Shown here: piece after piece, positions 430 through 63,685 of the stretch | How positions within the stretch are numbered: position 1 is the stretch's first letter | Layout: every line of letters begins with the position of its first letter | NCBI GenBank assembly: GCA_963733375.1 | Contig: CAVTDB010000013.1 | Coordinates: 78,658 to 142,657, forward strand | Origin: Nitrospirota bacterium | GTDB taxonomy: Bacteria > Nitrospirota > JACRHJ01 | Direction: 5' to 3' | DNA: 64,000 nt | Made by a program: the position numbers and the translations under genes | The notes under the pieces: model-generated | Told to the model about the DNA's origin: nothing | The model's database searches: none | The model's input: only the letters and a program-made list of their open reading frames with translations

Positions 430-578
430 AAAACCGCACTTTTCTTTGCGGAAAGAAAAGCGCCCAAAAGAAACGAGAGTAACTTCCTTATGGCAGGTCT
501 AACCCCAAAAGGGGGTTTTTTTGTCCGGTTTCTCTTTGCGTTACTTTCTCTTTCCCCAAAGAGAAAGTAACGGTTTAA
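430..578. repeat. AT-rich hairpin+mirror-tail inverted doublet, copy 1 (long spacer)
   Basis: CACTTTTCTTT-gcgg-AAAGAAAAGCG-cc-CAAAAGAAA and inverted TTTCTCTTTgc-GTTACTTTCTCTTT-cccc-AAAGAGAAAGTAAC. Confidence 0.85.
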
Positions 579-2960
579 ATGAACGAACACGCATTAAAAG
601 TACTCGAGTTTTACAAGGTCTCCGAGGCTGTTTCCACCCGCGCGGTATCCGGGCCGGGAAGGGCCGAGGCCCTGTCATTCGCCCCATCGTCCGATATAAA
701 AGAAGTCACTCTACGCCTTAAAGAGGCGGACGAGCTGAAAAAATATCTCACGTCCCGGCACGAGTTCCCCATACGCGGCCTGAAGGATATATCGGTCCAG
801 CTTAAAAAGGCGGCGGTGGAAGGGGCGGCGCTATCTCCCGAAGAGCTTTTACGGGTGCTCTCCGTGGCGCGGGCCTCCCGGCTGATGAAGTCCGCGCTCG
901 CGAAAGTAAAGCAGGAATATCCTACCCTAATCAAAAGGGCCGCGGCCCTCTCGGTCTTTGAAAACATAGAGATGGACATCGCCCGCGCGATAGGCGAGGA
1001 CTCGGAGGTGCTGGATTCGGCCTCCCCGGAGCTTAAAAGGATACGGCACGCGCTGACCCAGGTACGCTCCCGGCTGAACCGCGAATTGGAATCCATCATC
1101 CAGGGCCCGTCGTACTCGAAGGCCATTCAGGAGCCGGTGATAACCATGCGCGGCGACCGCTACTGACTCCCGCTCAAGACTAATTTCCGCACCTACCTCC
1201 AGGGCATAGTCCACGACCACTCGCAGACCGGCTCTACTGTATTCGTGGAGCCTGCGGCAACGGTTGAGCTTAACAACCGGCTGGTGGGCCTGAGAAACGA
1301 CGAGGTCCGGGAGATAGAGCGCATCCTCTGGCGGCTCACCGCTACCGTCCGGGAGAGTTGCGACCCGCTCGAAGCGTCTTATATGGCGCTCGTAAAGCTC
1401 GACGCGCTTTATGCCGTCGCGCAGTTCGCCCTGGATATAGACGGGAACCTGCCTTCGGTAAACGACAGGGGTTATGTCGAGCTGAAGGACGCACGCCACC
1501 CCCTGCTTGTGATGTCCAAGGGCAAGGGCGCGACCGTCCCCCTGGACATTAAGCTCGGGCGCGAATTCGATACGCTTGTAATCACGGGCCCCAATACCGG
1601 CGGAAAGACCGTCGTGTTAAAGACGCTCGGCCTTTTGACCTTGATGGCGCAGTCGGGTTTTCTTATCCCTGCCGCGCCGGACTCGGTTATCCCCGTATTC
1701 GAAGACGTATATTCGGATATCGGCGACGAGCAGAGCGTGGAGCAGAATTTAAGCACCTTCTCGTCGCACATGAACCAGATCGTCTCAATGCTGGGCGGCG
1801 CCAATCGCAATACGCTGGTACTATTAGACGAGCTTGGAGCGGGTACGGACCCGTCCGAAGGCTCGGCGCTAGGCGTCGCTATCATCGAGGAGCTTCACCG
1901 GCGCGGGACAAAGACCGTGGTCACGACGCACCACGGGGCGCTTAAGGTCTTTGCGGCGAACACGCCGGGCGTTATGAACGCATCGGTGGAGTTCGACCCG
2001 GAGACGCTTCTACCCACATACAGCCTGGCCATCGGAAGGCCGGGGCGGAGCAGCGCGATACTCGTCGCCTCGCGTCTCGGGATGCCGAAAGGTGTCCTGG
2101 AGCGGGCGAAAGAAGGCCGGGCGGCGGGCGAGGCGGAGCTTGACACGCTCATCGAGAAGCTGGAAAAAGAGGCGCAGGCCGCGCGTGAGGATAGAAGAAA
2201 GGCCGCACAGGAGGCACAAGGCGCGCGTGCGGAAAAGGAACGGCTTCAGGAACTGGTGCGGCGTGCGGAGGACGAGCGGCGCGAGGCGGTGCAGAAGGCA
2301 AAGGAAAAGGCGCAGAACGTCATTAATTCATTGAAGTTCAAGCTCCGGGAGCTGGAAGACCTGGCGAAGAAAGCCGCCGCGATATCGCCTGAGCGCGCGG
2401 AGGTAAAGAAGCACTCGGAAGAGGTGCAGGCGCTTGAAGCGCAGTTAAAGGACGAGTCGGTCCCGGCGGGTCCTATCAGAAGGCTTGAGATGGAGGCGCT
2501 TTCCGTCGGTGACACGGTAAAAGTCTATAAATACAACCGGCTCGGGCAGGTAATAGAAATAAAAAAAGACAAGAAAAAAGTCGTCGTACAGCTTGGCACG
2601 ATGCGGGTGACGCTATCGCCTAGCGAGCTTGAGCTGTCCACCCGCTCCGCACCCGACAGGGCCAGGACGACCGCGTTCACGGTATCGCGGGCCGAGGAAG
2701 ACGAGGACGAAACGTCCCCCGGCATGGAGTTGAATATCATAGGCCTACGGGTGGAAGAAGCTATGTCGAAGGTGCAGAAATTTTTGGAAAAGTCCATGCT
2801 TTCCGGCCTGGGCAGCGTCCGTATAATCCACGGCCGTGGCACGGGCGCACTCCGTAAAGCCATCCGGGAAGAACTGACGATTACCCCCGGCGTGAAGGAT
2901 TTCCACGACGAGGTGTTCGAGCTTGGCGGCGACGCGGTGACGGTGGTGACGTTTAAATAA
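579..2960 (+). CDS. mutS2: Endonuclease MutS2 (in-frame TGA at 1164-1166)
   Basis: ORFs 579-1166 and 1245-2960 share one frame; ITGPNTGGKT Walker A, DELGAGTDP, C-terminal Smr domain IIHGRGTGALR. Confidence 0.93.
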
Positions 2961-2987
2961 TGCCGTCTCGGTCATTAGAGTAACGCC

Positions 2988-3026
2988 TCCCCCATCCCCC
3001 TCTTAGCCTACGAGGGGGATGGGGGA
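2988..3026. repeat. Perfect GC-rich hairpin (terminator/REP-like)
   Basis: TCCCCCATCCCCCTC-loop-GAGGGGGATGGGGGA between mutS2 and the GT2 gene. Confidence 0.6.
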
Positions 3027-3044
3027 CTTCGGAAAGGATTTTGG

Positions 3045-3987
3045 ATGTCAAGTGCGATGCCCCTGGTAAGCGTTATAATACCGACATACAACGGCGAAGC
3101 CTCTATCCGTGAGGCGGTCGAGAGTGCGCTTTCTCAAACTTTTACTGACATGGAAATTATGGTCGTTAACGACGGCTCGACCGACGGCACCGGGAAAAAA
3201 CTTGAAGATTTGATAACAGATGGTCGAATAAAATACATACCTCAGATGAACGCAGGGCCGGGGGCTGCGCGGAATACCGGCATAAAAAATACATCGGGAG
3301 AGCTTATCGCCCTCTTAGACCACGACGATTTATGGATGCCGGAAAAGATAGAGAAGCAGGTCCGCTTCATGCGGGAGAATCCGTGGGCGGATGTCGTTTT
3401 CAGCGACGGCTATTGCATTGATGAAAAAGGGGGAATGAGCGCGCGCGAGAGAGAGCGCGCGCCAAGAAAATATTCGGCCCGGCCTGATTTTATAGAGATG
3501 TTCGGCCAGGGTCTTAATGCCCTGCCGACCTCGGTCATGTTCAGGCGGCAAGCAGTTGAACTAGTCGGGGATTTTAAAGAGAATAAACCGGGCGCTTGGT
3601 TGTCGGACGATTGGGACATGTGGTTCCGGATGGCGGCAAAAGGCCTGCGTTTTGCCTTTATTAGTGAACTGCTCTATATAAAAGAGGGGGCACTCGGCGA
3701 ACTTGACCATGCAAGTACTATCCAGCTCATGCACAAAGGCCCATAACGCCTGTAAGAAAATCGGAGAAGATTTCGCCGTGAGGGATTTAGCGCCTATCAG
3801 GAAAAGGTTCGCCACGGGACGCTTTGACGCCGCCCGTAAGTTCATGTACATGGGCCGCTTCAGGGACGGCCTGGCTTCCGGCATTTGTGCCGCCACGTTT
3901 CAGGGAAAATATTATTTTAAATTGCCTGGGCTCATTGTGAGATATTTTAGACTTATGCTTAAAAGAAATTTTAAGATTAATCAATAA
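3045..3987 (+). CDS. Glycosyltransferase family 2 (frameshifted near 3680-3720)
   Basis: VSVIIPTYN, VVNDGSTD, ARNTGI, LDHDD motifs; C-terminal part in ORF 3703-3987. Confidence 0.85.
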
Positions 3988-5908: not shown

Positions 5909-7734
<1,826 letters not shown>

Positions 7735-7735
<1 letters not shown>

Positions 7736-9069
7736 TGGCCGACGTAATACCGTTTCGGGGAGTAAGGTACAACCATTCGTCAAAATTATCGAAGCTTGTC
7801 GCGCCGCCCTATGACGTAATCTCGCCGCAGTACAGGCAGGAACTCTACGACCGGGACCCTCATAACGTCGTCCGGATAGATTTCGGCATGCCCGAGGAGG
7901 GCGACTCCGCGGACAACAACCAGTACACGCGCGCGGCGAAAAGCCTGAAGCGGTGGATCGGAGACGGGGTCCTGCGGCGCGAAGAGAAGCCCGCGCTGTA
8001 CCTCTACGAAGTGGAGTACGAGACCCCGGCGGGCGAGAAGAAGTCCATGCGCGGCTTCATCTGTCTTCTTCGGCTGGAGGAGTGGGACAAGGGCATAGTC
8101 CTCCCGCATGAAGGCACTCTGAAGGGGCCCAAGGCGGACCGGTTCGAGCTATTAAAATCCGCTTCCGCCGCCGCGAGCCAGGTGTTCTCGCTGTACTCGG
8201 ACCCGGAAAAAAAGATATCGAAGGCGTTCGAGTCCGCCGCGGCTAAGCCCCCTTCCGGGGAGGCGACCGACGACGACGGCTCCGTGCACAGGATCTGGGT
8301 CGTGACAGACCCGGAGATAATCAAGGCGGTGCAAAAGGCCATGGCGGACAAGAAGGTTTTCATTGCCGACGGCCATCACCGTTACGAGACGGCGCTTGGC
8401 TACCGCGACTACAGGAGAAGCGAGGCCGCCGCATGGACGGGCGGCGAGGGCTTTAATTTCATCCCCATGTTCCTCTCCAACATGGACGAGGACGGCCTTA
8501 CGGTACTGCCTACCCATCGGCTGATAAGCGACGCGGGCGAGCTTACGCTGGACTCCGTGCTGGAGCGGTCCTCGCATTATTTCAAAGTAAAGCGGTTCTC
8601 GTTCCTCACGGAAAACGAGTATGACGCGCGGTCGGAGTTCCTTCGTTCACTTTCGGAAGCGGGAAAGAATTCCCACTCCTTCGGCTTCTGCTGGGACAGC
8701 GCCCCATGCTATTACCTCCTTACCCTTAAGGACCTGGACGACGTCGCGAAGGCGCAGTGGTGCCCGCGCTCGGATACCTATTGCAGCCTGGACGTCACGA
8801 TACTTCATTCGCTTATAGTGGAGCGCGTGCTTGGCATCGACACGGAGAAGATTGCCGTGTCCCAGCCGGTGCAGTTCGAGAAAAACGCCGACAGGGCGAT
8901 AGAGCGGGTCGCGGCCGGCGAGTTCGCCATGTGCTTCCTGCTGAACCCGACCAAGGTGCAGGAGGTGAAGGAGGTCGCGCTGGCCCATGAGATAATGCCG
9001 CAGAAATCGACTTACTTTTATCCGAAGCTCCTGACCGGCCTGGTGATAGCGGATTTGAACCATATATAA
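7735..9069 (+). CDS. DUF1015 family protein
   Basis: PPYDVIS, PHEGT, IADGHHRYETA, MPQKSTYFYPKL motifs. Confidence 0.88.
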
Positions 9070-9180
9070 ACCGTTACTTTCTTTTCGAGAAAAGAAAGTA
9101 ACACAAAGAAAAGCTGGGGTTAAAGTCTCGCTTTCTTTTGTGTTACTTTTCTTTCCCGCGAAAGAAAAGTAACGACTTTA
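9067..9180. repeat. AT-rich inverted doublet, copy 2
   Basis: TAAACCGTTACTTTCTTTT-cgag-AAAAGAAAGTAAC-ac-AAAGAAAA ... TTTCTTTT-gt-GTTACTTTTCTTT-cccgcg-AAAGAAAAGTAACGACTTTA. Confidence 0.92.
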
Positions 9181-9191
9181 AGAATTAAAAA

Positions 9192-9650
9192 ATGCCTAAA
9201 CTTACCACCATCGCCGGGATAATCAAGGAAGTCCTGAAGGCGCGGGGCCTGGGAAGCGGGGATACGCTCTCTAAGCTCCGGGGTAAATGGGCAAACGCTG
9301 TGGGAGGGAAAATCGCACAGCACGCACAGCCTCAGATGATCAGAGAGGGGCGGCTCACCTTGACCGTTGACAGCCCCGCCTGGATGTCCCAGCTCTACCA
9401 TGCTCTCCCCCGAGATTATAGAAAAAATAAACGCGGCGCTTGAAGAGGGCGCGGTCCGGGAACTGAAGTTCTGCCTGGGTACGCCCGCAAAGAATGAAAA
9501 GAGAAAAGAAGGCGGCTCCCATAAAGAAGCGTGAGATTTCGCCCGAGGAGAAAGACGCCATAGAGGCGCGCCACGGCGAAAATTGGGGACAAGGAGCTTC
9601 GGTCCTCCGCAAAGAAAATGCTGTCCAAATCATGCAGGAGGGTGAAGTAA
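9192..9650 (+). CDS. DciA/DUF721 family protein (frameshifted)
   Basis: W..AVG.KIAQHAQP..IREGRLTLTVDSPAWMSQL; continuation in shifted frames to TAA at 9648-9650. Confidence 0.75.
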
Positions 9651-10337
9651 TGGCCTGCGACTGCAAGAACTGCATCGTCAGGGGCCTCACTATTTTTTCC
9701 GGCCTCGGCATAAGCGAGCTTGAGAAGGTCGGGACGCTGATATACCTGAAAAGCTTCCGCCGCAAGAAAGTAATCTTCCTCGAAGACACGCCAAGCAATA
9801 CCGTTTACGTCCTGAAGACCGGCACGGTCAAGTGCTATAAATCGCTGCCCGACGGCCGCGAGCTGATAATCAGCATCCTCACCCCCGGCGACATGCTGGG
9901 CTTCGACTCCCTCTACGAAGACCACTACTCAAATACCGCCGAGGCCATACAGGACACGGAGCTTTGCTGCATCCGAAAAAAGGACCTGGTGGACCTCCTT
10001 CAAGAGCAGCCCCGAGGTCGGCGTCCGGTTCATCAAGAAGATGAACAAGGAGCTTCAACTCGCGCAGGAGCGCATCCGGGACCTGGGCCTGAAGGACGCG
10101 CGTGAGCGTGTGGCGACTCTTCTGATGACGCTCTTCATCTCTCGCGGAGAGGGCCAGGTGCCCAAGTTCACCCTGTCCCGGCAGGAGATCTCCGAGATGG
10201 CGGGCGTCGCCCAGGAAACGGTGATAAGGATAATTTCCGAATTCAAATCGGACGGGCTGATTAAATCGGAAGGCAAAAACATCGTAGTGCTGAAGCCGGA
10301 TGAACTGCGGAAGACGGCAGGGATATTTGAGATATAA
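9650..10337 (+). CDS. Crp/Fnr family regulator with N-terminal Cys cluster (frameshift ~10000)
   Basis: MACDCKNC N-terminus, cNMP-binding fold (LPDGRELII..GDMLG), HTH LSRQEISEMAGVAQETVIR. Confidence 0.88.
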
Positions 10338-10443
10338 TTTCTTCTTTTCTTTTACGGAAAAGAAAAGAAGCAAAAGAAAACGGGGCTAATTTAAGTCCGG
10401 CTTTCTTTTGCTACTTTTCTTTCACCCGAAAGAAAAGTAGGAG
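10335..10443. repeat. AT-rich inverted doublet, copy 3
   Basis: CTTCTTTTCTTT-acgga-AAAGAAAAGAAG-c-AAAAGAAA ... TTTCTTTTg-CTACTTTTCTTT-cacccg-AAAGAAAAGTAG; 3' end merges into the suhB RBS. Confidence 0.88.
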
Positions 10444-10447
10444 GTTT

Positions 10448-11255
10448 ATGAAAGAACTGACAGTTGCAAAACGCGCCGCAAAAGAGGCGGGAAAAATATT
10501 GCTCTCCTACATGGGGAAGCTGGAGCATGTCGAGTATAAGGGCCGGCGCGACCCGGTAAGCGAGGCGGACAAGGCGTCCGAGAAGCGGGTCGCGGAGATA
10601 ATCAGGGAGGCGTTTCCGGCGCACGGATTTCTGGCGGAGGAGAAGACCTCGTGGACAGGCCAGGACAAAAGCGCCCGCTGGATTGTGGACCCGCTGGACG
10701 GCACGGTTAATTATGCGCACGGCTATCCGCACTTCTCGGTCTCCATCGCGTTCGAGAGGGACGGAGAAGTTCAGGCGGGCGTGGTATTCGACCCGGTGAA
10801 GAAAGACCTGTTTTCCGCCGTCAAAGGCGGCGGCGCTTTTTTGAACAACACGCCGATACGGGTATCAAAGACGAGGACGTTGATAAAGTCGCTTATCGTG
10901 ACCGGCTTCCCTTACGACATCGAGAGCCGCCCGAAGGAAATCCTCGAACCGTTTAACCGGATGGTCCTGGCGTCGCAAGGGGTACGGCGTGACGGCTCCG
11001 CCGCACTGAACCTGTGCTACCTTGCCGTGCGGCCGCTTCGACGGCTACTGGGAAATGGGGCTTAAGCCCTGGGACACCGCGGCGGGAATGCTCATCCTGC
11101 GCGAGGCGGGCGGAGTAGTGACGGACTTCAAAGGCGAGCCGTTCAAGCCGGAGATGCAGGAGATACTGGCGAGCAACGGAAAGATACAGAAAGAAATGAT
11201 GGAGGACTCTGGAAAAAAAGGGGCACTAAAAATTACTCCCTCGGCCAGACCTTGA
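10448..11255 (+). CDS. suhB: Inositol monophosphatase (frameshift ~11025; 3' end uncertain)
   Basis: [32 protein letters not shown] motifs. Confidence 0.9.
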
Positions 11256-12142
11256 ACTTCTCCACCATCCGTATCGGATTATAAGACTGCTTGGATTTTT
11301 TCAGGTTCGGCTCGCCCAGGTCCTGCTCGCGGTTCACGAATTCGATATCCGGGAACTCCTGCTTTAAGAACTCGCTCGAAATATATTGATACAGCCCCGA
11401 GTATTCCTGGTTCGCTTTCTCCACGTGCACGACGACCATTTCCTCGTTTAAAAGCTCGCCCAGCGACAGCGCCTCGACAACGCCGTTTATAAGGACTACG
11501 CCGCCGATGGTGGAGAGGTCTTTCAGGTGGTCCAGCGCGTGCTGCGTCGCCTCCGCCTCGCCGAAAGTGGACGGTATGTTTACGGAGCATTTCTCGCGGC
11601 ACCAGCGATCGACCAGGTCCTTTGCCTGCGGGACAAGCTCCGGCGTGAGCCTTCTGTATTCCGGGTCATACCTCTTTAGGAATCGGTTCAGCAGGTTCTT
11701 CTTGTCGTGGAATTTCCTGCCGGAGAGCGAGATGAGTTCGGCCGTGCTGTAAACGTAATCGCTGTCGTCCTGGCTCAGTTCGTATTTATATTTAGGGTCC
11801 CCCTCGATATATTTTTTGATGAATTCCGCTGATGCCAGGTTGACCACGGGCAACTCGTCATCTCTCCCGCATGAAATCCATCTGACTGTTCATCGTTTCC
11901 GGGATTTTATTATCGCCGACGGGCGGGAAGAAGTAATATTCCCCCTGGTAGGACTTTGCGTAGAAGAGGAGGTTGCCGTTAAGAGTGCTGATTTTATAAT
12001 CGTGGACGTGCTTGAACATGAAGAGGTTCGTGAAGCAAAGCTCCGAGACCTCCGGCCTGAGGGCGCGGAATATCGCCTCCACCGGCTCCCGGTCGGAAAG
12101 CTCAATAGGGCGGAACGCTGGAAATTTCGGGAAGTCGGCCAT
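11233..12142 (-). CDS. DUF2156 / aminoacyl-transferase-like domain protein (frameshift ~11860)
   Basis: [13 protein letters not shown]...[32 protein letters not shown]. Confidence 0.85.
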
Positions 12143-12160
12143 TGAAGAAATTATAACACC

Positions 12161-12299
12161 AAAACCCTTCTTACTTTTCTTTCGCGAAAAAGAAAAGAAA
12201 CAAAAGAAAACGGGGCTGAAAAACAATTTATCGGGTTTAAACAGTCCGGCTTTTCTTTGTGTTACTTTCTTTTCACCTGAAAAGAAAGTAACGACTTTA
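12161..12299. repeat. AT-rich inverted doublet, copy 4
   Basis: Two hairpin+tail units tail-to-tail, ending GTAACGACTTTA just past the uvrA stop. Confidence 0.9.
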
Positions 12300-12303
12300 G
12301 ACT

Positions 12304-15123
12304 TTATATGTTCAACGCCTTTTTTAAGAACTGCCCCGTATACGACCCTTTGGCCTTCGCTATGTCTTCCGGCGTGCCCATCGCGACTATGCGTCCGCCG
12401 CCGTCCCCGCCTTCCGGGCCGAGGTCTATTATATGGTCCGCCGTCTTTATCACGTCCAGGTTATGCTCGATGACCACCACCGTGTTCCCCGTCTCCACCA
12501 GCCGGTTCAGCACGTCGAGGAGCTTCTGGATGTCCGCGAAGTGCAGCCCTGTGGTCGGCTCATCAAGGATATACAAGGTTCGACCGGTGCTGCGCTTCGA
12601 CAGTTCTTTCGAGAGCTTCACCCTCTGCGCCTCGCCGCCGGAGAGCGTCGTGGCGGACTGCCCGAGCTTTATGTAGCCTAGCCCCACGTCGTTTATGGTC
12701 ACCAGCTTGTTGTGTATCACCGGGATGTTCTCGAAGAAGTCCAGCCCCTCGGATACGGTCATTTCAAGCACGTCCGTAATACTTTGACCCTTGTACTTTA
12801 TCTCCAGCGTCTCGCGGTTATAGCGCTTGCCCTTGCATACGTCGCAGGTCACGAACACGTCCGGCAGGAAGTGCATCTCTATCTTTATCACTCCGTCGCC
12901 CTGGCATGCCTCGCACCGCCCGCCCTTGACGTTAAAGCTGTACCGGCCCGCCTTGTAGCCGCGCATCCTGGAGTCGGGCACCTGCGCGAACATCTCCCGT
13001 ATGTGCGTGAACAGCCCGGTATAAGTCGCCGGGTTGGAACGCGGAGTCCTGCCGATGGGCGACTGGTCGATGTCTATGACCTTGTCCACCTCGTGCAGGC
13101 CGAGCACGCCGTCGCACAGGCCCGCGCGCTCGGTGGAGCGGTAGAACTGCTGCGCGAGGGTCTTGTACAACACCTCCAGCACCAGCGAGGATTTCCCGGA
13201 GCCGGAGACGCCCGTCACGCAGGTCAGCACGCCCAGCGGTATGCGGACGTCGATATTTTTCAGGTTATTTTCACGCGCCTTCTTTATGGTGATATACTTC
13301 CTGGCGGTCCTGCGCATCAGCGGGACGAGTATCTTTCTTCTGCCGGAGAGGTATGCGCCGGTTAGCGAATCCTCGTTCTCCATTATCTCTTTAGGCGTCC
13401 CCTGCGCCACCACATATCCGCCGTGTTCCCCGGCGCCCGGCCCCATGTCGATTACGTAATCGGAGCGCAGTATCGTGTCCTCGTCGTGCTCCACGACCAG
13501 CACGGTATTGCCGAGGTTCTTAAGCGACAGAAGCGTATCCAGCAGTTTCTCGTTGTCTCTCTGGTGGAGGCCGATGGACGGCTCGTCGAGTATATAGAGC
13601 ACGCCCATGAGCGAGGAGCCTATCTGCGTCGCAAGCCTTATCCGCTCCGCCTCGCCGCCGGAGAGCGTCGCCGCGCGCCTGTCCAGCGTGAGGTAGTCCA
13701 GCCCCACGTTTATGAGGAACCCAAGCCGCTCGTTAATCTCCTTCAGGATCTTCTGCGCGATGAAAGACTCTTTCTCCGTCAGCGGCAGTTCCGTAAAGAA
13801 CTCACGCGCCCGGCGCACGGAAAGTCTCGTCGCCTGCGTGATATTTACGTCTCCCACCTTTATGGAAAGAGATTCCTTCCTCAGCCTGTCGCCTTTGCAT
13901 GCCGGGCACGGGTGCGCGCCCATGTATTCCTCTATCTCCTGGCGGATGTAGGCGGACTCGGTCTCATGGTATCGCCTGGCCAGGTTTTTCACCACGCCCT
14001 CGAACTCGCGGGTGTAGAACTGCTTCCGGCCGTCGCGCATGAACCAGAACTTTACTTCCTCGCCGCCGGAGCCGTATAAAATCGCATCTTGAGCCTTCTT
14101 CGGCAGCTTCTTCCAGGGCGCCGTGAGCGAGAACCCGAAATGGTCGGCTAACGCCTCCAGCATCTGGTAGTAGAATACCGTCGTGCGCTTCGACCACGGC
14201 TTGACCGCGCCCTCGCGTATCGATAAATCTTTATTCGGGATGACCAGGTCCGGGTCTATGTCCATCTTCGCGCCCAGGCCGTCGCACTCCGGGCACGCGC
14301 CGTGCGGGTTATTGAACGAGAACATCCTGGGCGTCATCTCCGGGTAGGATATGCCGCAGTAGATGCAGGCGAGCTTTTCGGAATAGAGTATGTCTTTCGC
14401 GCCGGCCTCGACGGGAGAGATTACGACGATGCCTTCGGAGAGCTTCAGCGCGACTTCCAGGGAATCGGCCAGCCGCTTTTCGATTCCCTCCTTTATGACG
14501 AGCCTGTCGATGACTATCTCGATGGTGTGCTTCTTGTTCTTGTCCAGGACGATATTCTCGGAGAGGTCCCGCACCGCCTTGTCTATGCGCGCGCGGACGT
14601 AGCCCTCCTTCTTCATCTGGGCGAGCTCTTTTCGATATTCCCCTTTGCGTCCGCGGACGATGGGAGCGAGCACCGAAATCTTGGCGCCGGGGGGCATCGC
14701 GGTTATCTTGTCCACCATCTGCGAGACGGTCTGGGAGGTGATTTCCTTGCCGCAGTTGTAGCAGTACGGGTGGCCTATGCGTGCGTACAGAAGGCGCAGG
14801 TAGTCGTAGATTTCCGTCACCGTGCCGACGGTACTGCGCGGGTTCTTCGAGGTGGTCTTCTGCTCGATGGAGATGGCGGGTGAGAGGCCCTCGATAGAGT
14901 CCACGTCCGGCTTGTCCATCTGTTCCAGGAACTGCCGGGCGTATGCGGACAGGGACTCGACGTATCGCCTCTGTCCCTCGGCGTATATGGTGTCGAATGC
15001 GAGGGAGGATTTCCCCGAGCCGGAAAGCCCCGTGATTACAACGAGTTTGTCCCTGGGTATCTCCAGGTCTATGTTTTTTAAGTTATGCTCGCGCGCGCCC
15101 TTGATGATAAGCTTGTCCTGCAT
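12304..15123 (-). CDS. uvrA: Excinuclease ABC subunit A
   Basis: GAREHNLKN, two ABC domains ([24 protein letters not shown]), zinc fingers. Confidence 0.98.
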
Positions 15124-15890: not shown

Positions 15891-15958
15891 AAGGGAATTT
15901 CATTCGGCATGGATATGGAAGCGCCCGCAGACAATGCGGGCGTTTTTTTTAATTTAAT
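15882..15958 (+). repeat. ~75-bp direct repeat copy 1 (stop codon + intrinsic terminator)
   Basis: GCGGCTTAAAAGGGAATTTCATTCGGCATGGATATGG..GCGCCCGCA...TGCGGGCG-T tract; repeated at 17571-17644. Confidence 0.88.
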
Positions 15959-16931: not shown

Positions 16932-16937
16932 TGGCGG

Positions 16938-17570: not shown

Positions 17571-17644
17571 GCGGCGTAAAAGGGAATTTCATTCGGCATG
17601 GATATGGTAGCGCCCGCAGATATGCGGGCGCTTTTTTATTTAAT
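17571..17644 (+). repeat. ~75-bp direct repeat copy 2
   Basis: Matches 15882-15958 with few substitutions. Confidence 0.88.
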
Positions 17645-24210: not shown

Positions 24211-24258
24211 TTTTGTTACTTTCTTCACCTGGGAGTAACAAAAAAATAGCACGGTTTA
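24211..24258. repeat. Degenerate copy of the AT-rich repeat
   Basis: TTTTGTTACTTTCTTCACCTGGGAGTAACAAAAAAA...CGGTTTA. Confidence 0.55.
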
Positions 24259-24447: not shown

Positions 24448-25509
24448 ATGCGTATCGCCCAGGTTTCACCGCTTTACGAGAGCGTGCCGCCCAAGCTTTA
24501 CGGGGGGACCGAGCGTGTCGTATCGTATCTGACCGAAGAACTCGTAAGGCAGGGGCATGACGTTACCCTCTTTGCCAGCGGGGATTCCGTTACCTCCGCC
24601 AGGCTCGTCTCGCCGTGCAAAAAGTCGCTCCGGCTGGATACATCCTGCCTGGACTATATCTCTCACCACGTGCTCATGCTTGAGCAGGCGCTAAAGATGC
24701 AGGACGAGTTCGATATCATACATTTCCATATCGATTACATCCACTACCCGACCGTCCGGAGGACGTCCGTCCCTACTGTCACCACGCTCCACGGAAGGCA
24801 GGACCTGCCGGACTTGAAGGCCCTCTACGAGGAGTTCGACGACGTGCCGGTAATATCCATCTCCGATTCTCAAAGGCGTCCGATACCGCACGTGAACTGG
24901 CAGGGCACGGTCTATCACGGCCTGTCCCCGTCGCTTTATTCATTCAGCCGGAGCCCGGGGAAATATCTTGCTTTTTTGGGCAGGATATCGCCGGAGAAGC
25001 GGCTCGACAGGGCGATAGAGATCGCGCGGCGCGCAGGCATGGAGCTTCGGATTGCGGCCAAGGTGGACAAGGCGGACCAGGCTTATTTCGACCGCGAGAT
25101 AAAGCCTCATCTGAACCACAGAGGCGTCATTTTCCTGGGCGAGATAGGGGAGGACCAGAAGGAGGATTTCCTTAGCAACGCCCTGGCGCTTCTTTTCCCC
25201 ATAGACTGGCCGGAGCCCTTCGGGCTTGTGATGATAGAGTCCTTCGCTTGCGGGACGCCCGTAATCGCTTACCCGCAGGGTTCAGTCCCGGAGGTTATAG
25301 ACGACGGCGTTACCGGGTTCATCTGCGAGGATATCGACCAGGCGGTGGCCGCGGTGCAGCGCGCGGCGGATTTCGACAGGCTCTCCTGCAGGAAGCGCTT
25401 CGAGGAGCGGTTCTCATCAGGCAGGATGGCGGAAGATTATTTTAAAATTTATCAGCGGCTGGCCGCGCCGGCCAGAAAGCAAACCGTTACCTTTTTTGGA
25501 AAAAGGTAA
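24448..25509 (+). CDS. Glycosyltransferase family 4
   Basis: MRIAQVSP..ESVPPKLYGGTERVV, EPFGLVMIE..ACGTPV; stop codon lies inside a repeat. Confidence 0.92.
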   Translation: MRIAQVSPLYESVPPKLYGGTERVVSYLTEELVRQGHDVTLFASGDSVTSARLVSPCKKSLRLDTSCLDYISHHVLMLEQALKMQDEFDIIHFHIDYIHYPTVRRTSVPTVTTLHGRQDLPDLKALYEEFDDVPVISISDSQRRPIPHVNWQGTVYHGLSPSLYSFSRSPGKYLAFLGRISPEKRLDRAIEIARRAGMELRIAAKVDKADQAYFDREIKPHLNHRGVIFLGEIGEDQKEDFLSNALALLFPIDWPEPFGLVMIESFACGTPVIAYPQGSVPEVIDDGVTGFICEDIDQAVAAVQRAADFDRLSCRKRFEERFSSGRMAEDYFKIYQRLAAPARKQTVTFFGKR

Positions 25510-25611
25510 CACCAAAAACTTTTAAATTTTTCCGCTTTCTTTTGGTTACTTTTCTTTCACGTGAAAAGATTTATCTGTCCAGAGCGAAGCGAAGACAGAA
25601 AGAAAAGTAAC
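25481..25611. repeat. AT-rich inverted doublet, interrupted by micro-element
   Basis: Type-2 unit GTTACCTTTTTT-gg-AAAAAGGTAAC-ac-CAAAAAC plus type-1 unit split at 25570-25601. Confidence 0.9.
25570..25601. mobile_element. 32-bp micro-element with GA/GA flanks
   Basis: TTTATCTGTCCAGAGCGAAGCGAAGACAGAAA; removing it with one GA restores a perfect host hairpin. Confidence 0.7.
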
Positions 25612-28980: not shown

Positions 28981-29066
28981 TCGTCAGTTTTTTCTTTAGG
29001 GAAATGATTTATCTGTCCAGAGCGATAGCGAAGACAGAAAGAAAAGTAATCAAAAGAAACCGGGAC
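28981..29066. repeat. Degenerate AT-rich repeat with 33-bp micro-element at 29008-29040
   Basis: ..TTTTCTTT..GA-[TTTATCTGTCCAGAGCGATAGCGAAGACAGAAA]-GAAAAGTAATCAAAAGAAA. Confidence 0.8.
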
Positions 29067-40718: not shown

Positions 40719-40834
40719 TAAAGTCGTTACTTTTCTTTTGGGTAAAAGAAAAGTAACACAAAAGAAAACCGGACTTAAAAACAAACTTACAAGTTTTTGG
40801 CGTTACCTTTTTACCAAAAAGGTAACAGGCTTAA
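40719..40834. repeat. AT-rich inverted doublet (type1+type2)
   Basis: TAAAGTCGTTACTTTTCTTTT-gggt-AAAAGAAAAGTAAC-ac-AAAAGAAAA ... GTTTTTGGC-GTTACCTTTTT-acc-AAAAAGGTAAC. Confidence 0.92.
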
Positions 40835-42615: not shown

Positions 42616-42724
42616 ACCGTTACCTTTTTGGAAAAAGGTAACGCCAAAAACTTTTGGACAGGTTTAACCAGTCCAGCTTTCTTTTGTGTTACTTTTCTTT
42701 CTCGAAAGAAAAGTAACGACTTTA
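42613..42724. repeat. AT-rich inverted doublet (type2+type1)
   Basis: Begins on the TPR gene TAA, ends GTAACGACTTTA adjoining the lemA RBS. Confidence 0.92.
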
Positions 42725-51685: not shown

Positions 51686-51686
51686 G

Positions 51687-53627: not shown

Positions 53628-53635
53628 CGTGGATT

Positions 53636-56539: not shown

Positions 56540-56543
56540 TCCC

Positions 56544-56652
56544 TAAAACCGTTACTTTTCTTTCACGGGAAAGAAAAGTAACACAAAAGAAAGCGGGGCT
56601 GTTAGTCCAAAAGTTTTTGGCGTTACCTTTTTTCAAAAAGGTAACGGTTTTA
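56544..56652. repeat. AT-rich inverted doublet (type1+type2)
   Basis: TAAAACCGTTAC...GTAACGGTTTTA; overlaps the ptb 3' end. Confidence 0.92.
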
Positions 56653-58666: not shown

Positions 58667-58730
58667 AGCACTCTATCATAACAGAGGGAGGGGCTATGTT
58701 CAAGGAAAGTAACGCCCTGAACCGCATTAA

Positions 58731-58815
58731 CCCTCTCCCTGGCCCCTCTCCCAGCGACGGGAGAGGGGTGGAAGATTTTAACCCTCGCCCCATGTGGGAG
58801 AGGTAGGGAGAGGGG
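58731..58815. repeat. G/C-rich triplex-motif inverted doublet (boxC-like)
   Basis: CCCTCTCCC-tgg-CCCCTCTCCC-agcgac-GGGAGAGGGG and an inverted partner ending GGGAGAGGGG. Confidence 0.8.
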
Positions 58816-58817
58816 TA

Positions 58818-61050
58818 TTAGAAGAAATACGTCAGCGAGGTAAACACCGAATGGGCCTCGTATGGCTGGTACAGGGTGCCCATGTTCAGGAGATCGACAG
58901 CCCCGGCGGCGTTGGTTTGGACGTTCGTGAGGCCGTCGCGCTGGTAGTCGCTTATGCTCCACTTTTCATACCTGTATCCAAGAGACGCCGAGATGGATTT
59001 GGTCAGCTTCACCCGGAGCGTCACAATCGCCCTCCAGAACTCATTGGAATCGAGGTTATTGAAGTTGTCGGGGATGAACGCGTTCAGGTCCGGGTTAGGG
59101 CCAGTCGTGAGGCCGAGCGGACTTGAGAAGAAGGCCTTGCCTTGCACCTTCGACCAGGTCCCTTCAGCTTTTATACTGATGAACTCCGGCACGACCTGCA
59201 TGTCCGTCCCCAGGCCGACGGTCTGGATATTCGACCTTGTGCGCAGGTTCCAGTTGCTGGGGCTACTGGGGTCTGTCAGAAATGCGGCGGTCGCGGGAGT
59301 AGACTGCCTGTCCTCCTGGCCCTGGCTGTTGTATTCATAGGTGTAGAAGGCGTTCACCGATACCCATTTGGCGAGCTGCAGGTCCAGTGTCCACCGTCGC
59401 CGTCTGGAACTTGTTCAGTTGCAGGCCAAAGTAGGAACTGTCATAGCGGTCCCTGCCGTAAGTGTACTCCAGCGAGAACGAAAGCGGGTCGATGGGCATC
59501 ACCGTCACGATGGCGTCGGCTTGCATAGCGGTCTTTGTCCGCCATGTCGAATTTCCTGAGTAACGGGGGCTGACCGCCGGCGGTGTCCTCGTCGCCATAG
59601 TTCGATTCCCTGTCCGCATGGAGGAAGCTGAGCTTGGCTGTGAGCCAGTCCATGTTCCGGGTGTCGACGAAGAACTTTTCGGTGTTTTCCACCTCCGTCA
59701 TCCTCCCGGTGATCTCGTAGAAGTAGGTCTGGTCTGTGTACTGGTAGTTCACGCCCACGTTGGTCTTGGGCAGGATCTCATACGCCGCCTCGCCCTCCGC
59801 GGTGCGCGAAACCCAGCTGTTGTATTCGGGAGTCGAAAGCGAAGAGGTCGCGGAATCATACTGAAAGGCGGTGAAAGTCTGCACCGGGGTGTTGTTTATA
59901 TGGTCGAAGTACCTGAAGTCCGCCTTCAGGGACAGCTTCTCTACCGGCGAAGAGGTAGCCCGCACTCTAACTGCTTCGACTCCACCTCGCAGTCCGCCTT
60001 CGCCCTGGGCAGGGGGCCGAATACCGCCGCCGGGTTTGCCGACGGGGCCTGGAGGTTCTCGTTCTGGTTTTCCCAGGCGTAGCTCCCTATGAAGAGCACG
60101 CGGGTGCGCATGGGCAGGTTCACGCCAAGCGCGCCGTTTATGTCATCGTATAAGTTGCTGGGGGGCAGGGAGGTCCTTTCCAGGCCGGCCGCGAAGGGAT
60201 TCTCCCACGTTAAGGACTGGATATTGTTGTCGAAGGTGGAGTGGTAAAAATTCAAGCGGGCGAATACCAGTTTGTCGGCGTATTCCAGTCCCGCCTTTGC
60301 GTTATAGGTGTCGTAGTTTATAGGCTCGGCTATCTCCACCGGGGCCCCGAAGCCCAGGGATCCACCCAAGGGACGGGCGCCGTCCCGGTTCTCCCAGGTG
60401 AAACCGAGGTTTAAATCCACGGGCCAGAACATGTCCAGGTCGAGGTCCGCGCCGAGCTTGTCCCGCCGGAGGAGCAGGTCAACGGTATTCGCATCAGCCT
60501 CCGCTGCCTGGAACGTCCCTGCATTCGCCGCCGCCGTCGGGAGACCCAGGCCCGGTTTCAGGGTAAGGTTCCCTGTGCCGACCCCGTCAAAGACGGATTT
60601 CACGCCGTAGGCGAAAACATGCCCCATCCTCTGAAAGCCGAAGTCGAACTTGTACAGCCCGTAGGTTTGGCTCGTCAGGTCGACATCGAGGTCCTCCGGG
60701 CTCCTGTAGTCGATGGAAAGGTCCATCCTGTGCGACCCGTCCGGGGATATGACGTACGCGTTCAGTCCGCCGAACCCGCCCCAGGGCTCGGACTGTTTGT
60801 AGCGGTACTCGTTAAACTTCGCGCTGCCGCTGTCTTCCCAGAAGTATTCGCCTCCGCCCGTTATACTCCCGTGCGCTATCCATCCGGGGGCCCCTCCTTC
60901 GGGGGCAGGAGGCGGAGCGGGGGCGGGAGCCTCCGCGTTGGCTGGAGGTGCGATTGCTGGAGGGGCGGTGGCATCCTGGGCCATAACCGGGAGCGCAGTC
61001 GTGCCGGCCAGAAGCAGCAGGCATGACGTTATCAACATGAATTTTTTCAT
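58818..61050 (-). CDS. MtrB/PioB family outer-membrane beta-barrel (about 3 frameshifts)
   Basis: Signal peptide, SAKFNEYR, PINYDT, LPPSN, LRKFDMAD, C-terminal aromatic; directly after decaheme gene. Confidence 0.88.
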
Positions 61051-61065
61051 AGTAGACCCCTCCTC

Positions 61066-61998
61066 CTATCTTAAGAAAAATTCGCCAGACGGGCTGTTGG
61101 ACCCGTGGATGTCTGAGTGACAGTTCAGGCAGTCTCTGTAAATTGCCTGTACGGCCAGGCTCCTGGAGGGATTGTTCGGCACGTTCGTCGACGCGCCCAT
61201 GGCGTACAGTGTTCCGGGATGCCTCGAGCCGGAATGGCACGACTGGCAGAGGTAGATACTCTTACGGGCCAGGAGCTTGGTATGGTTCGAGCCGTGCGGC
61301 GTATGGCAATTCATGCAGTCCTCTACCACCGGCTTGTGCTCGAACAGAAACGGCCCGCGCTTCTCCGCGTGGCACTCGAAGCACTTGTCGTTTATCGTGA
61401 GGGCGTCAACTAACTTCGGGGCTATCGTCCCGTGCGGGTTATGGCAGTTCGTGCAGGTCAGCTTGCCCTCCCGGACCGGATGGTGGCTGGAGCGCCATAA
61501 CTCGGCCCGGATGTCGCCGTGGCAGCGCGCGCAGAGATCTATCTCGCTGTCCATCACTAAAAGATGCCTGTAGCCGTGGTGTACGGAGTGGCAGTTCGTG
61601 CATGCGAGGCTCCTGGTTTCGTGCGTGCTGCCTTTCCAGAGGGCAAGCTTTCCCCTTAAATGGCAGCCCAGACATATCTCGTTCATGGCCGGGGAGTCCA
61701 GTTTCTTCGGGTTCCGGATCTTGGTGGGGTCGCCCTCTTTCGCGTGGTTTGCGCCGGGGCCGTGGCAGGTTTCGCATCCCTGGAACGTCGTGAAGAATTT
61801 CCCGGCCTGCATATGGATGTTCGTCTGGAAATTCGCCGCCTCGTCCGGATGGCACCCGGCGCAGACGTTGTTGCCCACGTAACCGTTGTCGTCCGGAGCG
61901 CCGGCTGCGCCATCGGCCGCATAGGCCGAAAGGCTGGTGATAACCAGCAGGAATAAAGCAGCGGCTGCCGCCTTAAAAAAGGTAATCTTCCCGTACAT
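61066..61998 (-). CDS. DmsE/MtrA family decaheme cytochrome c
   Basis: Exactly 10 CxxCH; CHAEKRGPF.FEH.PV.EDC, CHSDIHGSN.PSG. Confidence 0.95.
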   Translation of the reverse strand: MYGKITFFKAAAAALFLLVITSLSAYAADGAAGAPDDNGYVGNNVCAGCHPDEAANFQTNIHMQAGKFFTTFQGCETCHGPGANHAKEGDPTKIRNPKKLDSPAMNEICLGCHLRGKLALWKGSTHETRSLACTNCHSVHHGYRHLLVMDSEIDLCARCHGDIRAELWRSSHHPVREGKLTCTNCHNPHGTIAPKLVDALTINDKCFECHAEKRGPFLFEHKPVVEDCMNCHTPHGSNHTKLLARKSIYLCQSCHSGSRHPGTLYAMGASTNVPNNPSRSLAVQAIYRDCLNCHSDIHGSNSPSGEFFLR

Positions 61999-62311
61999 TG
62001 ACCCCTCCTTCCGGGGGATGAGCTATCCTCCCCGACTGATTTGCGCCGCCCGCGGAATGGCGCGGCAAGTGAATTGCTCTTTACTTCTGGATTGCTTTAT
62101 ACTTTGGAAAAGAAGAAATTTACGGATTGCCTAAGGCTGGGAAAAGATGCGCGCTATTTCTTAACTCTTAACAAAATAACCAAATTTTGTCAATCATACC
62201 CCGCAAATAAACGGGTGTGGCCGGCTTTTGCCAAGTAACGATTCCAGCTTCGCTCAAATCCATGATAGTTTATGCTTGCCAACGGTTTGCAGGGTGATGT
62301 AATATCGCCTG

Positions 62312-63628
62312 ATGGAAATAATTACCTTAATCGCTTCGATAGCGACGCTTTTCCTTGCGGCCGTCATCCTTCTGCGCAAAAGCGGGGCCGACCGGGAGGC
62401 GCAAAAGGTTCAAGACCTTTTTAACCAAGGCCGATCCGAGACTGCCGACACGTTAAGGAAGGTATCCTCCGAGCTCTCCGAGAGGATTGCCGCGTCTTCC
62501 GCCGGGGTGCGCGAGGGGGTCTCGGACAGGTTAGCTGACGCCCTGACCGTGATGCAGGACAGGCTCTCCCTGAACTTGGGCGAGATACGGGACAAGGTGG
62601 ATGCGGAACTCAAGGCGGGGCGCCTTGAATCCGCCAAGGCGGGGACGGCGGCCACCGAAGCCATTATTAAAAGACTTGGCGAGTTCGGGCAGAACACCGC
62701 TTTATCCCTTGACTCCATACGGGAGAAGGTGGACCTCCGGCTGATGGAGATCGGAAACCAGGTGCAGGCGAAGCTGGACGAGAACATCAAGGAAGGGTTC
62801 GCTCATTTCGAGAAAGTCCAGGAGCACCTGAAGAAGGCGGAGATTCAGCTTGCCGGCCTGTCCGCGGTCGGAGTGTCCGTGAACGAGCTGAACAGCCTGC
62901 TGAAGCTGCCGCACCTCCGGGGCGGCTTCGGGGAGGCGGCGCTGGAGCTTTTGCTGTCGGAGTTTTTGCCGTCGGACCTATACGAGCTTCAGGCCCAGAT
63001 AGGCGCCAACCGGGTTGACGTCCTGGTGAAACTCCCCGGCGCGTCGCTCCCCATAGACAGCAAGTTCCCGCGCGAGCAGGTCCTGCCGCTGTTCGACAGT
63101 TGCGACCAGGGAAAAATCGCCGAGGCCAGAAAGGCGCTGTGCGCTGTCGTGAAGGCCCAGGCGAAGGACATATCGGAGAAGTACGTCCGTCCGGAGCTGG
63201 GCACGACTAACATGGGCCTTATGTTCCTGCCGTCCGAGCTGCTTTATTTCGAGATCGTCCGGGATACGGAGCTATGGGCCGCGCTCACGAAGCTGAAAGT
63301 ATTTCCGGTATCTCCCAATACCCTGGCCGTGACGTTAAACGGCGTCCGCATCTCGTATGACTACTACCAGATGGCCAAGGGCGTGGAGCAGACGGTGGAG
63401 AATATAAGGAAGGCGCGGAAGCATTTCGGCGATTTCGAGAGGAAGTTCGAAGACGTCGGGAAGTCCATCACAAAAGCGCAGGACGCCTACCACACCGCCT
63501 CCACCCACATCGGCAGGTACAGCACTTCCGTCAACCGCTTGACCGGCGGAGCTGCCCCATCGAAGAGATACCAGAATAGCAAACCTTTTCCACCTTTTTG
63601 GGAAAAAGGTGGAGCCAAAAACTTTTAA
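62312..63628 (+). CDS. rmuC: DNA recombination protein RmuC family (3' end runs into repeat)
   Basis: N-terminal TM, coiled coil, RG.FGE, PIDSKFP, I.EKY, MFLPSE, SPNTL. Confidence 0.88.
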   Translation: MEIITLIASIATLFLAAVILLRKSGADREAQKVQDLFNQGRSETADTLRKVSSELSERIAASSAGVREGVSDRLADALTVMQDRLSLNLGEIRDKVDAELKAGRLESAKAGTAATEAIIKRLGEFGQNTALSLDSIREKVDLRLMEIGNQVQAKLDENIKEGFAHFEKVQEHLKKAEIQLAGLSAVGVSVNELNSLLKLPHLRGGFGEAALELLLSEFLPSDLYELQAQIGANRVDVLVKLPGASLPIDSKFPREQVLPLFDSCDQGKIAEARKALCAVVKAQAKDISEKYVRPELGTTNMGLMFLPSELLYFEIVRDTELWAALTKLKVFPVSPNTLAVTLNGVRISYDYYQMAKGVEQTVENIRKARKHFGDFERKFEDVGKSITKAQDAYHTASTHIGRYSTSVNRLTGGAAPSKRYQNSKPFPPFWEKGGAKNF

Positions 63629-63685
63629 ACTGTCCAGCTTTCTTTTGTGTTACTTTTCTTTCTCGAAAGAAAAGTAACGACTTTA
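63581..63685. repeat. AT-rich inverted doublet (type2+type1)
   Basis: TCCACCTTTTT-ggg-AAAAAGGTGGA-gc-CAAAAAC ... TTTCTTTTgtGTTACTTTTCTTT-ctcg-AAAGAAAAGTAACGACTTTA. Confidence 0.92.

Follow-up and report, generated by a model that had tools for sequence, protein, structure and literature searches.

A dispersed Nitrospirota hairpin repeat with a mirror-image purine tail, a potential intrastrand triplex element

The subject of this analysis is a family of small hairpin repeats situated between the genes of a 64,000-nt stretch of Nitrospirota contig CAVTDB010000013.1 (the window; coordinates given without a contig name are positions in it). Typically, the stem of a copy is followed by a purine tail, which repeats the purine arm of that stem as its mirror image. 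The sequence data suggest a lineage-specific intergenic repeat, comparable to the repetitive extragenic palindromes (REPs) and bacterial interspersed mosaic elements (BIMEs), that is a potential intrastrand triplex element of the same kind as BoxC/TMECO; we put the probability of this reading at roughly 0.55. Among the genomes scanned, the family appears to be confined to one family-level clade of Nitrospirota.

Anatomy and abundance of the units

The window belongs to a 2.39-Mb genome (G000; 26 contigs, about 55 % G+C). This genome was scanned for hairpins consisting of a pyrimidine arm, a loop and a purine arm, and 306 were found, 263 of which have a run of C plus purines adjoining the stem. 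The 43 hairpins without such a tail are mostly unrelated sequences. With three ambiguous and two head-like hairpins excluded, 258 oriented units with a parsed tail remained, distributed over 149 loci (about 108 units per Mb). The family was originally predicted from the window alone; all 11 of the loci named in that prediction are present, nine of them as tail-to-tail doublets, and the genome-wide census bears out a real dispersed family made up mostly of inverted doublets. The predicted density of about one locus per 6 kb applies to the window (one per 5.8 kb), but not to the whole genome, in which there is one per 16 kb.

Each unit is roughly 45–55 nt in length and reads, from 5′ to 3′, head, foot, pyrimidine arm, loop, purine arm, complementary foot, linker, C or C's, and purine tail. 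The head is a short AAA-(A/G)-(C/T)-C sequence. The foot consists of 4–5 bp of Watson–Crick pairing that close the hairpin and is mostly GTTAC/GTAAC, the hairpin loop is mostly 2–6 nt, and 0–2 linker bases followed by one or two C's precede the tail. In type 1a the arm is GAAAGAAAAG and the tail C-AAAAGAAAG; in type 1b they are (G)AAAAGAAAG and C-AAAGAAAA(G), in type 1c AAAAGAAAAG and C-AAAAGAAAA, and in type 2 AAAAAGG and CC-AAAAA. The arm/tail examples on which the original prediction was built had been read correctly: the units at 9073 and 12250 have arm AAAAGAAAG and tail AAAGAAAAG, the common type has arm GAAAGAAAAG and tail AAAAGAAAG, the unit at 529 has AAAGAGAAA in both arm and tail, and type 2 combines AAAAAGG with CCAAAAA.

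A scan of the window against Rfam gave no match at the gathering score; below this threshold, only weak miRNA-like hairpin look-alikes were listed, at 8900–12400. The distribution of the family along the genome is patchy, with one 177-kb stretch devoid of copies where about 0.003 such gaps would be expected. This stretch (C3:35000-211000) has a lower G+C content (51.8 % versus 56.1 %), and contig C20 (80 kb) is also without units. Both may be acquired regions or binning contamination, which is estimated at 5 %.

The tail as mirror image of the arm

If each C is taken as the partner of a G, the complete tail exactly mirrors part of the arm in 231 of the 258 units. The tail is not itself a mirror sequence in 155 units, and here the two orders can be told apart: 144 of these tails occur within the arm in mirror order and one in direct order. 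Counted as distinct arm/tail haplotypes (n=55), 44 are mirror and one is direct. In line with the original prediction, changes in the stem are accompanied by mirror-image changes in the tail. When tails were re-dealt among the 165 type-1 units (1000 trials), the number of matches averaged 65 and never exceeded 83, as against 153 observed. The same relation emerged from a family-blind scan for asymmetric purine 8-mers with a Watson–Crick partner upstream and a copy 3–9 nt downstream, in which 311 8-mers had a mirror copy and four a direct copy alone; the locally shuffled genome gave none.

Besides the home genome, the survey of variants covered 1.07 Mb from a second species of the same genus (G002) and smaller parts of G008 (390 kb), G003 (80 kb) and G004 (40 kb). 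It yielded at least 14 asymmetric combinations of arm and tail, all of them mirror and none direct, and some are singletons or private to another genus. They include AAAAAGAAAG/CAAAGAAAAA, GAAAGAAAAGG/CCAAAAGAAAG, AAGAAAGG/CCAAAGAA and AAAGAAGG/CCAAGAAA, as well as three pairs seen solely in G003, which belongs to another genus: AAGAAGG/CCAAGAA (six times), AAAAGGG/CCGAAAA (three times) and AAAGAGG/CCAGAAA (twice). Eight self-mirror arm/tail pairs also follow the rule, and unrelated hairpins picked up in this survey are without mirror tails. The 390 kb of G008, again from another genus, contain only about 15 units and no new variants.

Pairs were also counted position by position in 28 units of identical geometry (23 distinct rows) out of 56 collected type-1 units; a MAFFT alignment of all 56, in which the tails fell out of register where foot or linker lengths differ, was set aside. 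The rows are related, so the pair counts are not probabilities. Hairpin pairing holds in 99.4 % of 314 cells, with five pairs changed on both sides. For the tail against the pyrimidine arm in parallel register, which is equivalent to the mirror of the purine arm, 100 % of 84 cells are paired and all four of the pairs tested are changed on both sides; slid controls reached 54–67 %, and none of 500 shuffles attained the observed number of cells. Pyrimidine arm, purine arm and tail vary in concert among the copies. Two other partners for the tail were considered and rejected. As an alternative antiparallel Watson–Crick partner of the pyrimidine arm, it pairs in 88 % of cells and leaves 23 unpaired, and pairing with the pyrimidine arm of the partner unit, as a general rule, fits the 1a/1b doublets only and not the 73 doublets of types 1 and 2.

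Distribution and divergence between species

Apart from the home genome, 11 genomes of its taxonomic family were scanned with a strict type-1 hairpin pattern, and 9 of them had matches, as against none of 29 genomes from 12 other families of the phylum. The pattern was found 69 times in the home genome, 31 and 56 times in its genus and 2–7 times elsewhere, and a reversed-pattern control gave no match.

Syntenic blocks of G002 and G000 are approximately 91–94 % identical in nucleotide sequence. By means of both flanks, 41 hairpin loci of G002 were mapped, of which five are not family units, leaving 36 family loci. The architecture is the same in the two species at 23 of these (40 units) and different at 13, the differences including units present in one species only and a loop insertion of 35–38 nt that is present or absent. 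At one site (G000 C9:100874-101059, G002 C2:106228-106398), a doublet of type 1 and type 2 occurs in opposite orientation in the two genomes; the entire element may have been inverted, or the site may have been filled a second time independently.

At the 23 conserved loci, divergence was highest in the spacer between units (58/357, 16.2 %), the head (42/289, 14.5 %) and the loop (21/149, 14.1 %). The flanks, which are mostly coding, differ at 146/1608 positions (9.1 %), the pyrimidine arm at 31/425 (7.3 %), the purine arm at 18/410 (4.4 %), the foot at 8/198 (4.0 %), the tail purines at 8/295 (2.7 %) and the tail C at 1/66 (1.5 %). The difference between the tail and the loop plus spacer is highly significant (Fisher p = 1.3e-9), and the whole tail changes more slowly than even the flanks (9/361 versus 146/1608, p = 4e-6). 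The arms, the foot and above all the tail are constrained or homogenised, and the loops and spacers are free; the copies of the family are not recent duplicates. The claim that structure rather than a fixed sequence is kept is supported by this pattern and by the many arm/tail pairs that follow the mirror rule. In one orthologous unit, matched single-base insertions are seen in all three segments (a C in the pyrimidine arm and a G each in purine arm and tail), TTCTTT/AAAGAA/AAGAAA in G000 corresponding to TTTTT/AAAAA/AAAAA in G002.

These data bear on one alternative, a plain REP/BIME-like hairpin repeat, either selfish or a stabiliser of transcripts, the tail of which is a co-inherited flank and the mirror order of which is a frozen accident of a few low-complexity founders. 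A span of 45 nt takes in both arm and tail, which are copied as one, and the two main types swap the same two 9-mers. Units have been gained, lost and even inverted between species, as the 13 of 36 loci with differing architecture attest, and the steric exclusion of hairpin and triplex described below would also suit a plain hairpin. A frozen accident is, nonetheless, hard to square with at least 14 concordant asymmetric variants, several of them singletons or private to another genus, with a tail the length of which follows that of the stem, and with a tail that is the slowest-evolving part of the unit. We therefore regard this explanation as rather unlikely.

Geometry of the putative fold-back

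A mirror run of at least 7 positions is present in 250 of the 258 units. In 246 of these 250, 3–5 bases lie inside the innermost matched pair; the turn so formed reads TAACA in 75 units, TAACG in 51, TAAC in 35, TAG in 18 and TAC in 15, with other sequences besides. The innermost pair is an arm G facing a tail C, once in 153 units and twice in 96 (249/250 together). Tail and arm are of the same length in 197 units (10 and 10 in 101, 7 and 7 in 81, 9 and 9 in 15). This geometry suggests that the third segment would fold back over a short turn closed by a Watson–Crick G:C pair and then follow the stem to its tip, A lying opposite A and G opposite G.

The bases of the turn are those of the foot's 3′ half. 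Within a unit, the two halves of the foot remain complementary while their sequence varies (GTTAC/GTAAC, GCTAC/GTAGC, CCAC/GTGG, TCCAC/GTGGA, GTAC/GTAC, GTTC/GAAC, CTAC/GTAG). Were the foot paired, the tail would start 0–2 nt past a helix of 4–5 bp and, judging from helix geometry, could not reach the register in which it co-varies. With turn and conserved foot sharing these bases, the full hairpin and the triplex would be mutually exclusive alternatives. A model with an outer stem, in which the outer feet and heads of a doublet pair and the inner feet are turns, was rejected, as foot variants are complementary within and not between units; at C8:20853, for example, CCAC/GTGG adjoins GTAC/GTAC.

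A pyrimidine stem, a purine stem and a mirror purine stem in succession constitute a class II intrastrand triplex in the scheme given in PMC4666352, the complement of which has the pyrimidine-motif layout. The class II block order, with pyrimidine stem, purine stem and third purine stem on one strand, is found in the 258 units. The antiparallel third-block match of that class (A/A and G/G over at least 6–8 positions) is present as the run of at least 7 noted above, the one or two stem-proximal positions being G/C. With respect to the ITxF loop limit of 1–6 nt, the hairpin loop is mostly 2–6 nt and the turn 3–5 nt, although the latter draws on bases of the foot, which are paired in the hairpin form. 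The triplex layout of the original prediction is thus upheld as regards block order, and on the complementary strand as the pyrimidine-motif layout (PMC4666352), whereas the triplex as such is a reading of the sequence alone.

If this reading is right, the mirror rule would stem from a third segment that accompanies the helix of the hairpin as its third strand. On the strand with the purine tail, the triads would be A·A-T and G·G-C (class II, DNA only), and on the complementary strand T·A-T (or U·A-U) and C+·G-C (pyrimidine motif, DNA and RNA). Each strand of a tail-to-tail doublet carries one unit of each polarity. According to the introduction of PMC4666352, purine-motif triplexes do not form in RNA and pyrimidine-motif triplexes do; the evidence on the purine motif in RNA is described as mixed in a review (PMC7583470). 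As foot and turn share bases, such an element would alternate between two states, the hairpin with its foot paired and a shorter hairpin to which a third strand is added, most likely in single-stranded nucleic acid.

Several points weigh against a triplex. The paired hairpin and the triplex would compete, since the triplex register uses the 3′ half of a conserved foot. The stem-proximal arm G always faces a tail C and not a G; this is not a purine-motif triad, and it looks like a Watson–Crick closing pair. In the account of TMECO/PIT given in PMC4666352, no effect on promoters, terminators or polymerase was seen in vivo. Since inheritance couples arm and tail, the copy counts exceed the number of independent events. 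The triple change between orthologues, moreover, may be one gene conversion towards the consensus and not three mutations. The more distant orthologue in G004 is a decayed element that retains the variant pre-tail; the derived state may accordingly be the consensus form seen in G002. In G001, the site holds a different insert. Finally, purine-motif triplexes rich in A·A-T are weak, and the pyrimidine motif requires two protonated C's here.

The symmetry could also be that of duplex DNA. In this alternative, the unit is a site for a symmetric protein that reads groove shape, i.e. weak versus strong pairs; E. coli BIMEs, for comparison, bind gyrase and IHF. Written in weak and strong letters, purine arm and tail form a perfect palindrome, symmetric around the 3–5-nt centre in 246 of 250 units, and a shape reader would accept a G facing either G or C. 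The orientation of the elements relative to the genes is, in addition, random (23 versus 31 for doublets of types 1 and 2, summed by hand). A reader of shape would, however, permit A-to-T swaps, and all 231 exact-mirror tails consist of purines only. The foot, free in sequence but complementary, argues for base pairing rather than contact with a protein, and we know of no candidate protein of this type. Such a site is, in our judgement, decidedly doubtful.

Doublets, gene context and possible transcription

The 149 loci comprise 109 doublets and 40 single units, and all doublets but one are tail-to-tail. Type 1 is followed by type 2 in 40 doublets and type 2 by type 1 in 33; two type-1 units are combined in 34 tail-to-tail doublets and in the single head-to-tail one, and two type-2 units in one doublet. 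Among the doublets built of 1a and 1b units, 25 have unlike partners and one has like partners. Unit frequencies (89 and 57) would lead one to expect about 48 % unlike, and by our own arithmetic the chance of at least 25 in 26 is near 1e-7.

Gene context was assessed with crude calls of open reading frames. Loci are situated between co-directional genes in 109 of 146 cases, between convergent genes in 21 and between divergent genes in 16, against a background of 66 % co-directional. In 50 of the 109 co-directional loci, the element starts 2–11 nt past the upstream stop codon, the TAA of which is often supplied by the head (142 of 258 heads contain TAA). In 78 of the 109, it ends no more than 35 nt from the next candidate start, with a ribosome-binding site between; this start was taken as the first in-frame start codon past the element, a choice that favours short distances. 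Because the elements fill gaps between co-directional genes, they are probably transcribed; the benefit to the cell might lie in transcript stability, translational coupling or DNA topology. When the 12 transition-type stem mismatches are read on the sense strand, 10 are G·U and two A·C (one-sided binomial approximately 0.02, calculated by hand), in a sample that is small and to which one foot variant contributes several cases. This excess of G·U is at most a hint of selection on the transcript.

A further explanation places the function in RNA without a third strand: an intercistronic element of three hairpins (unit, central stem, unit), its tails base-paired to one another and to the spacer, acting as a weak bidirectional terminator or processing site. 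RNAfold indeed places the tails in a central stem flanked by two hairpins (z = -4.35; with DNA parameters, z = -6.1), and a terminator scan lists a spacer stem with a T-rich pre-tail at 10383 and 12231. The placement of the elements from just past a stop codon to shortly before the next start would fit, as would the G·U mismatches. The unlike partners (25 versus 1), however, make the tails mismatch, and doublets of types 1 and 2 allow only 4–5 A:T pairs; single units make up 40 of the 149 loci, no part evolves faster than the spacer, and pairing between tails leaves the mirror relation of a tail to its own arm unexplained. As for termination, the G+C-rich stem plus U run of an intrinsic terminator was not found in the units, whose stems are A/T-rich and followed by A-rich tails, although some spacers are weakly terminator-like. 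Canonical terminators with a G+C-rich stem and a T run are present elsewhere in the window (15917–15957 and 17609–17642), so the repeat family is not this organism's form of terminator. The three-hairpin explanation therefore appears quite improbable.

The triplex reading can itself be extended to the transcript. On the mRNA, the downstream unit of a tail-to-tail doublet reads pyrimidine tail, turn, pyrimidine arm, loop and purine arm. This unit could open its foot and fold as an RNA triple helix directly before the ribosome-binding site of the next gene. That the mirror tail is a selected two-state switch in transcripts, with a U·A-U/C+·G-C triplex at this position, is a speculative proposal and an unlikely one at present.

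The question of a mobilising enzyme

The original prediction also likened the family to REP/REPIN and proposed a search for a RAYT/TnpA, IS630 or other nuclease flanked by the units; the REPIN/RAYT part of it fails. The Y1/RAYT transposase domain PF01797 was not matched in G000, G001 or G002, the copy-richest genomes (81, 97 and 94 % complete, respectively). Of the 12 genomes of the family, 5 have a match, and units do not flank any of the four hits that were examined. No TnpB-type domain (PF07282) was found. The sole IS630-like (DDE_3) match in the home genome, C13:2071-2499, lies about 76 kb upstream of the window, with neither family units nor matching inverted ends near it. Membership of the REP/REPIN-RAYT system was rejected, given the lack of a flanked Y1 gene and doublets of unlike units, for which three separate stems are predicted instead of one long hairpin. 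With regard to features of miniature inverted-repeat transposable elements, the heads are inverted (AAAACC...GGTTTT), and no clear duplication was seen by eye at sites filled in one species only.

The units might still be the non-autonomous partners of a single-strand transposase (HUH/Y1, RAYT or IS200-like) that recognises the hairpin and reads the flank by non-canonical contacts. A hairpin plus flank is the expected architecture, units are present in one species and absent from the other, and a second mini-repeat lands in hairpin loops. The domain searches above speak against such a partner, the IS630-like gene being unlinked as well, and the copies differ in their loops and not in their stems, which argues against recent copying. 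This explanation must be considered very improbable.

The second mini-repeat is approximately 33–38 nt long and has an inverted pair, CTGTC...GACAG. It occurs in the window at 25559–25597 and 29003–29040, and elsewhere, for example, at C1:5948, C3:211402 and C26:22916. Its 13-nt core is found 28 times in the genome, and 11 copies are situated inside type-1 loops, abutting the arm. Since some orthologous units of G002 are without it, it has the appearance of a mini insertion directed at hairpin loops. It is also found in the loop of a third hairpin repeat (GTCATTCCCG...CGGGAAT) at G000 C2:43304, C25:142171 and C3:274786. Tandem occurrences are seen at C10:67866/67901, C16:42430/42466, C17:22341/22364 and C25:151796/151845.

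Units in the window

Eighteen units were parsed in the window as nine tail-to-tail doublets, in addition to two degenerate single units; in each doublet, the first unit named is on the + strand and the second on the - strand. The first doublet combines a type-1 unit at 436–473 (arm AAAGAAAAG, tail CC-AAAAGAAA, one A·C mismatch in the foot) with a type-1 variant at 529–572 (arm AAAGAGAAAG, tail C-AAAGAGAAA). The long spacer that separates them contains, at 501–523, a small hairpin resembling a terminator, CCCC aaaa GGGG with T7 after it. Next come a type-1b unit at 9073–9113 (arm GAAAAGAAAG, tail C-AAAGAAAAG) with a type-1a unit at 9131–9173 (arm GAAAGAAAAG, tail C-AAAAGAAAG), and a type-1c unit at 10341–10380 (arm AAAAGAAAAG, tail C-AAAAGAAAA, foot CTTC/GAAG) with a type-1a unit at 10401–10440, which has the foot CTAC/GTAG and is followed by a ribosome-binding site and start codon. 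A type-1 unit with a partly degenerate stem and tail C-AAAAGAAAA (12171–12210) is paired with a type-1b unit at 12250–12292 (arm GAAAAGAAAG, tail C-AAAGAAAAG).

The two single units are a degenerate hairpin at 24215–24239, which retains the foot GTTAC/GTAAC and has no mirror tail, and a type-1a-like unit with a long loop at 28983–29059 (+), which has a degenerate 5′ arm, the second-repeat insertion in its loop and the tail C-AAAAGAAA. Between these lies a doublet of a type-2 unit at 25486–25518 (arm AAAAAGG, tail CC-AAAAA) and a type-1a unit at 25535–25611, the loop of which holds a 39-nt copy of the second repeat. The remaining doublets all combine types 1 and 2: type 1c at 40726–40768 (arm AAAAGAAAAG, tail C-AAAAGAAAA) with type 2 at 40794–40826; type 2 at 42618–42650, starting a few bases past a TAA stop codon, with type 1a at 42677–42717, beyond the end of which a GGAG ribosome-binding site lies at a distance of 7 nt; type 1a at 56551–56593 with type 2 at 56614–56646; and type 2 at 63589–63621, which has the compensated foot TCCAC/GTGGA, with type 1a at 63638–63678. 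The genes of the window are ordinary chromosomal ones, e.g. those for RpoD, UvrA, MutS2 and multihaem cytochromes.

Relation to known elements and significance

REPs and BIMEs are imperfect intergenic palindromes of 20–40 bp that occur as several types in alternating orientation with set linkers, often just past stop codons. The Nitrospirota units are likewise intergenic, of several types, alternating in orientation and often situated just past stops. They differ from REP/REPIN in the lack of a RAYT in three genomes of the genus, in the conserved mirror tail, which has no REP counterpart, and in doublets that do not form one long hairpin.

The closest parallel is with BoxC (also PIT or TMECO), a dispersed triplex repeat of E. 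coli and other Proteobacteria, of which E. coli K-12 carries 23 copies and a set of 262 genomes 3610 (PMC4666352). As characterised there, TMECO is intergenic and without strand bias, its loops vary more than its stems, and its inverted pairs are always of two different types. Like that element as so described, the present family is dispersed, strictly intergenic, without strand bias and without a tie to known mobile genes; it has the class II block order, with a turn of 3–5 nt in place of the second loop, and loops more variable than stems, and its 1a/1b doublets, 25 unlike to one alike, recall the inverted pairs of unlike types. It is not, however, a member of the BoxC/TMECO sequence family (CCCTCNCCC N3-6 GGGNGAGGG N3 GGGNGAGGG): its units are A/T-rich (A7-8 G1-2) rather than G/C-rich and bear no likeness to CCCTCNCCC...GGGNGAGGG. 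Unlike BoxC, the Nitrospirota unit has an extra foot of 4–5 bp, the 3′ half of which doubles as the second loop, and a turn closed by G:C. Its arms are asymmetric, so that a mirror can be distinguished from a direct repeat, and it is far denser, at about 108 units per Mb of G000 compared with 23 per E. coli K-12 genome, in a Nitrospirota host. From its sequence, the family would appear to be an A/T-rich, foot-bearing variant of the BoxC kind, laid out like BIMEs, and outside both the BoxC sequence family and REP-RAYT.

Two further comparisons are pertinent. Purine arm, centre of 3–5 nt and tail form a homopurine/homopyrimidine mirror repeat, which is the sequence requirement of H-DNA in supercoiled duplex as stated in PMC4666352; unlike in H-DNA repeats, the halves here are only 7–10 bp, and a third, inverted copy (the pyrimidine arm), not needed for H-DNA, is always present. 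U·A-U and C·G-C triads stabilise the MALAT1 RNA triple helix, according to the description in PMC4836648, and the pyrimidine strand of the present element, if transcribed, would similarly offer seven U·A-U and two C+·G-C triads in parallel register. In contrast to MALAT1/ENE, its fold would be a simple fold-back of three consecutive blocks and would not involve a U-rich internal loop that clamps an A-rich tract at the 3′ side, and it is a bacterial element of hundreds of copies, known here from sequence.

In the triplex repeats of E. coli, the third block is almost self-mirror, and its sequence cannot separate mirror order from mere repetition. The asymmetric arms of the present family, with many variants in several genera, amount to a natural mutant series in which three segments change together and the tail is the most conserved. 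They provide rare comparative evidence for selection on a three-stranded contact, or on something of equal symmetry, in a living lineage. The element also lends itself to testing: it is compact (about 45 nt), occurs in natural variants, contains its own competing hairpin and has DNA and RNA versions. If the transcript switch were true, bacteria would have in it their first RNA triple-helix element dispersed genome-wide, one acting on cistron stability or translation, and the natural three-way covariation would be its proof. If, instead, the tail is irrelevant to folding, the family would still be an unreported BIME-like repeat of Nitrospirota that fills operon gaps from stop codon to ribosome-binding site.

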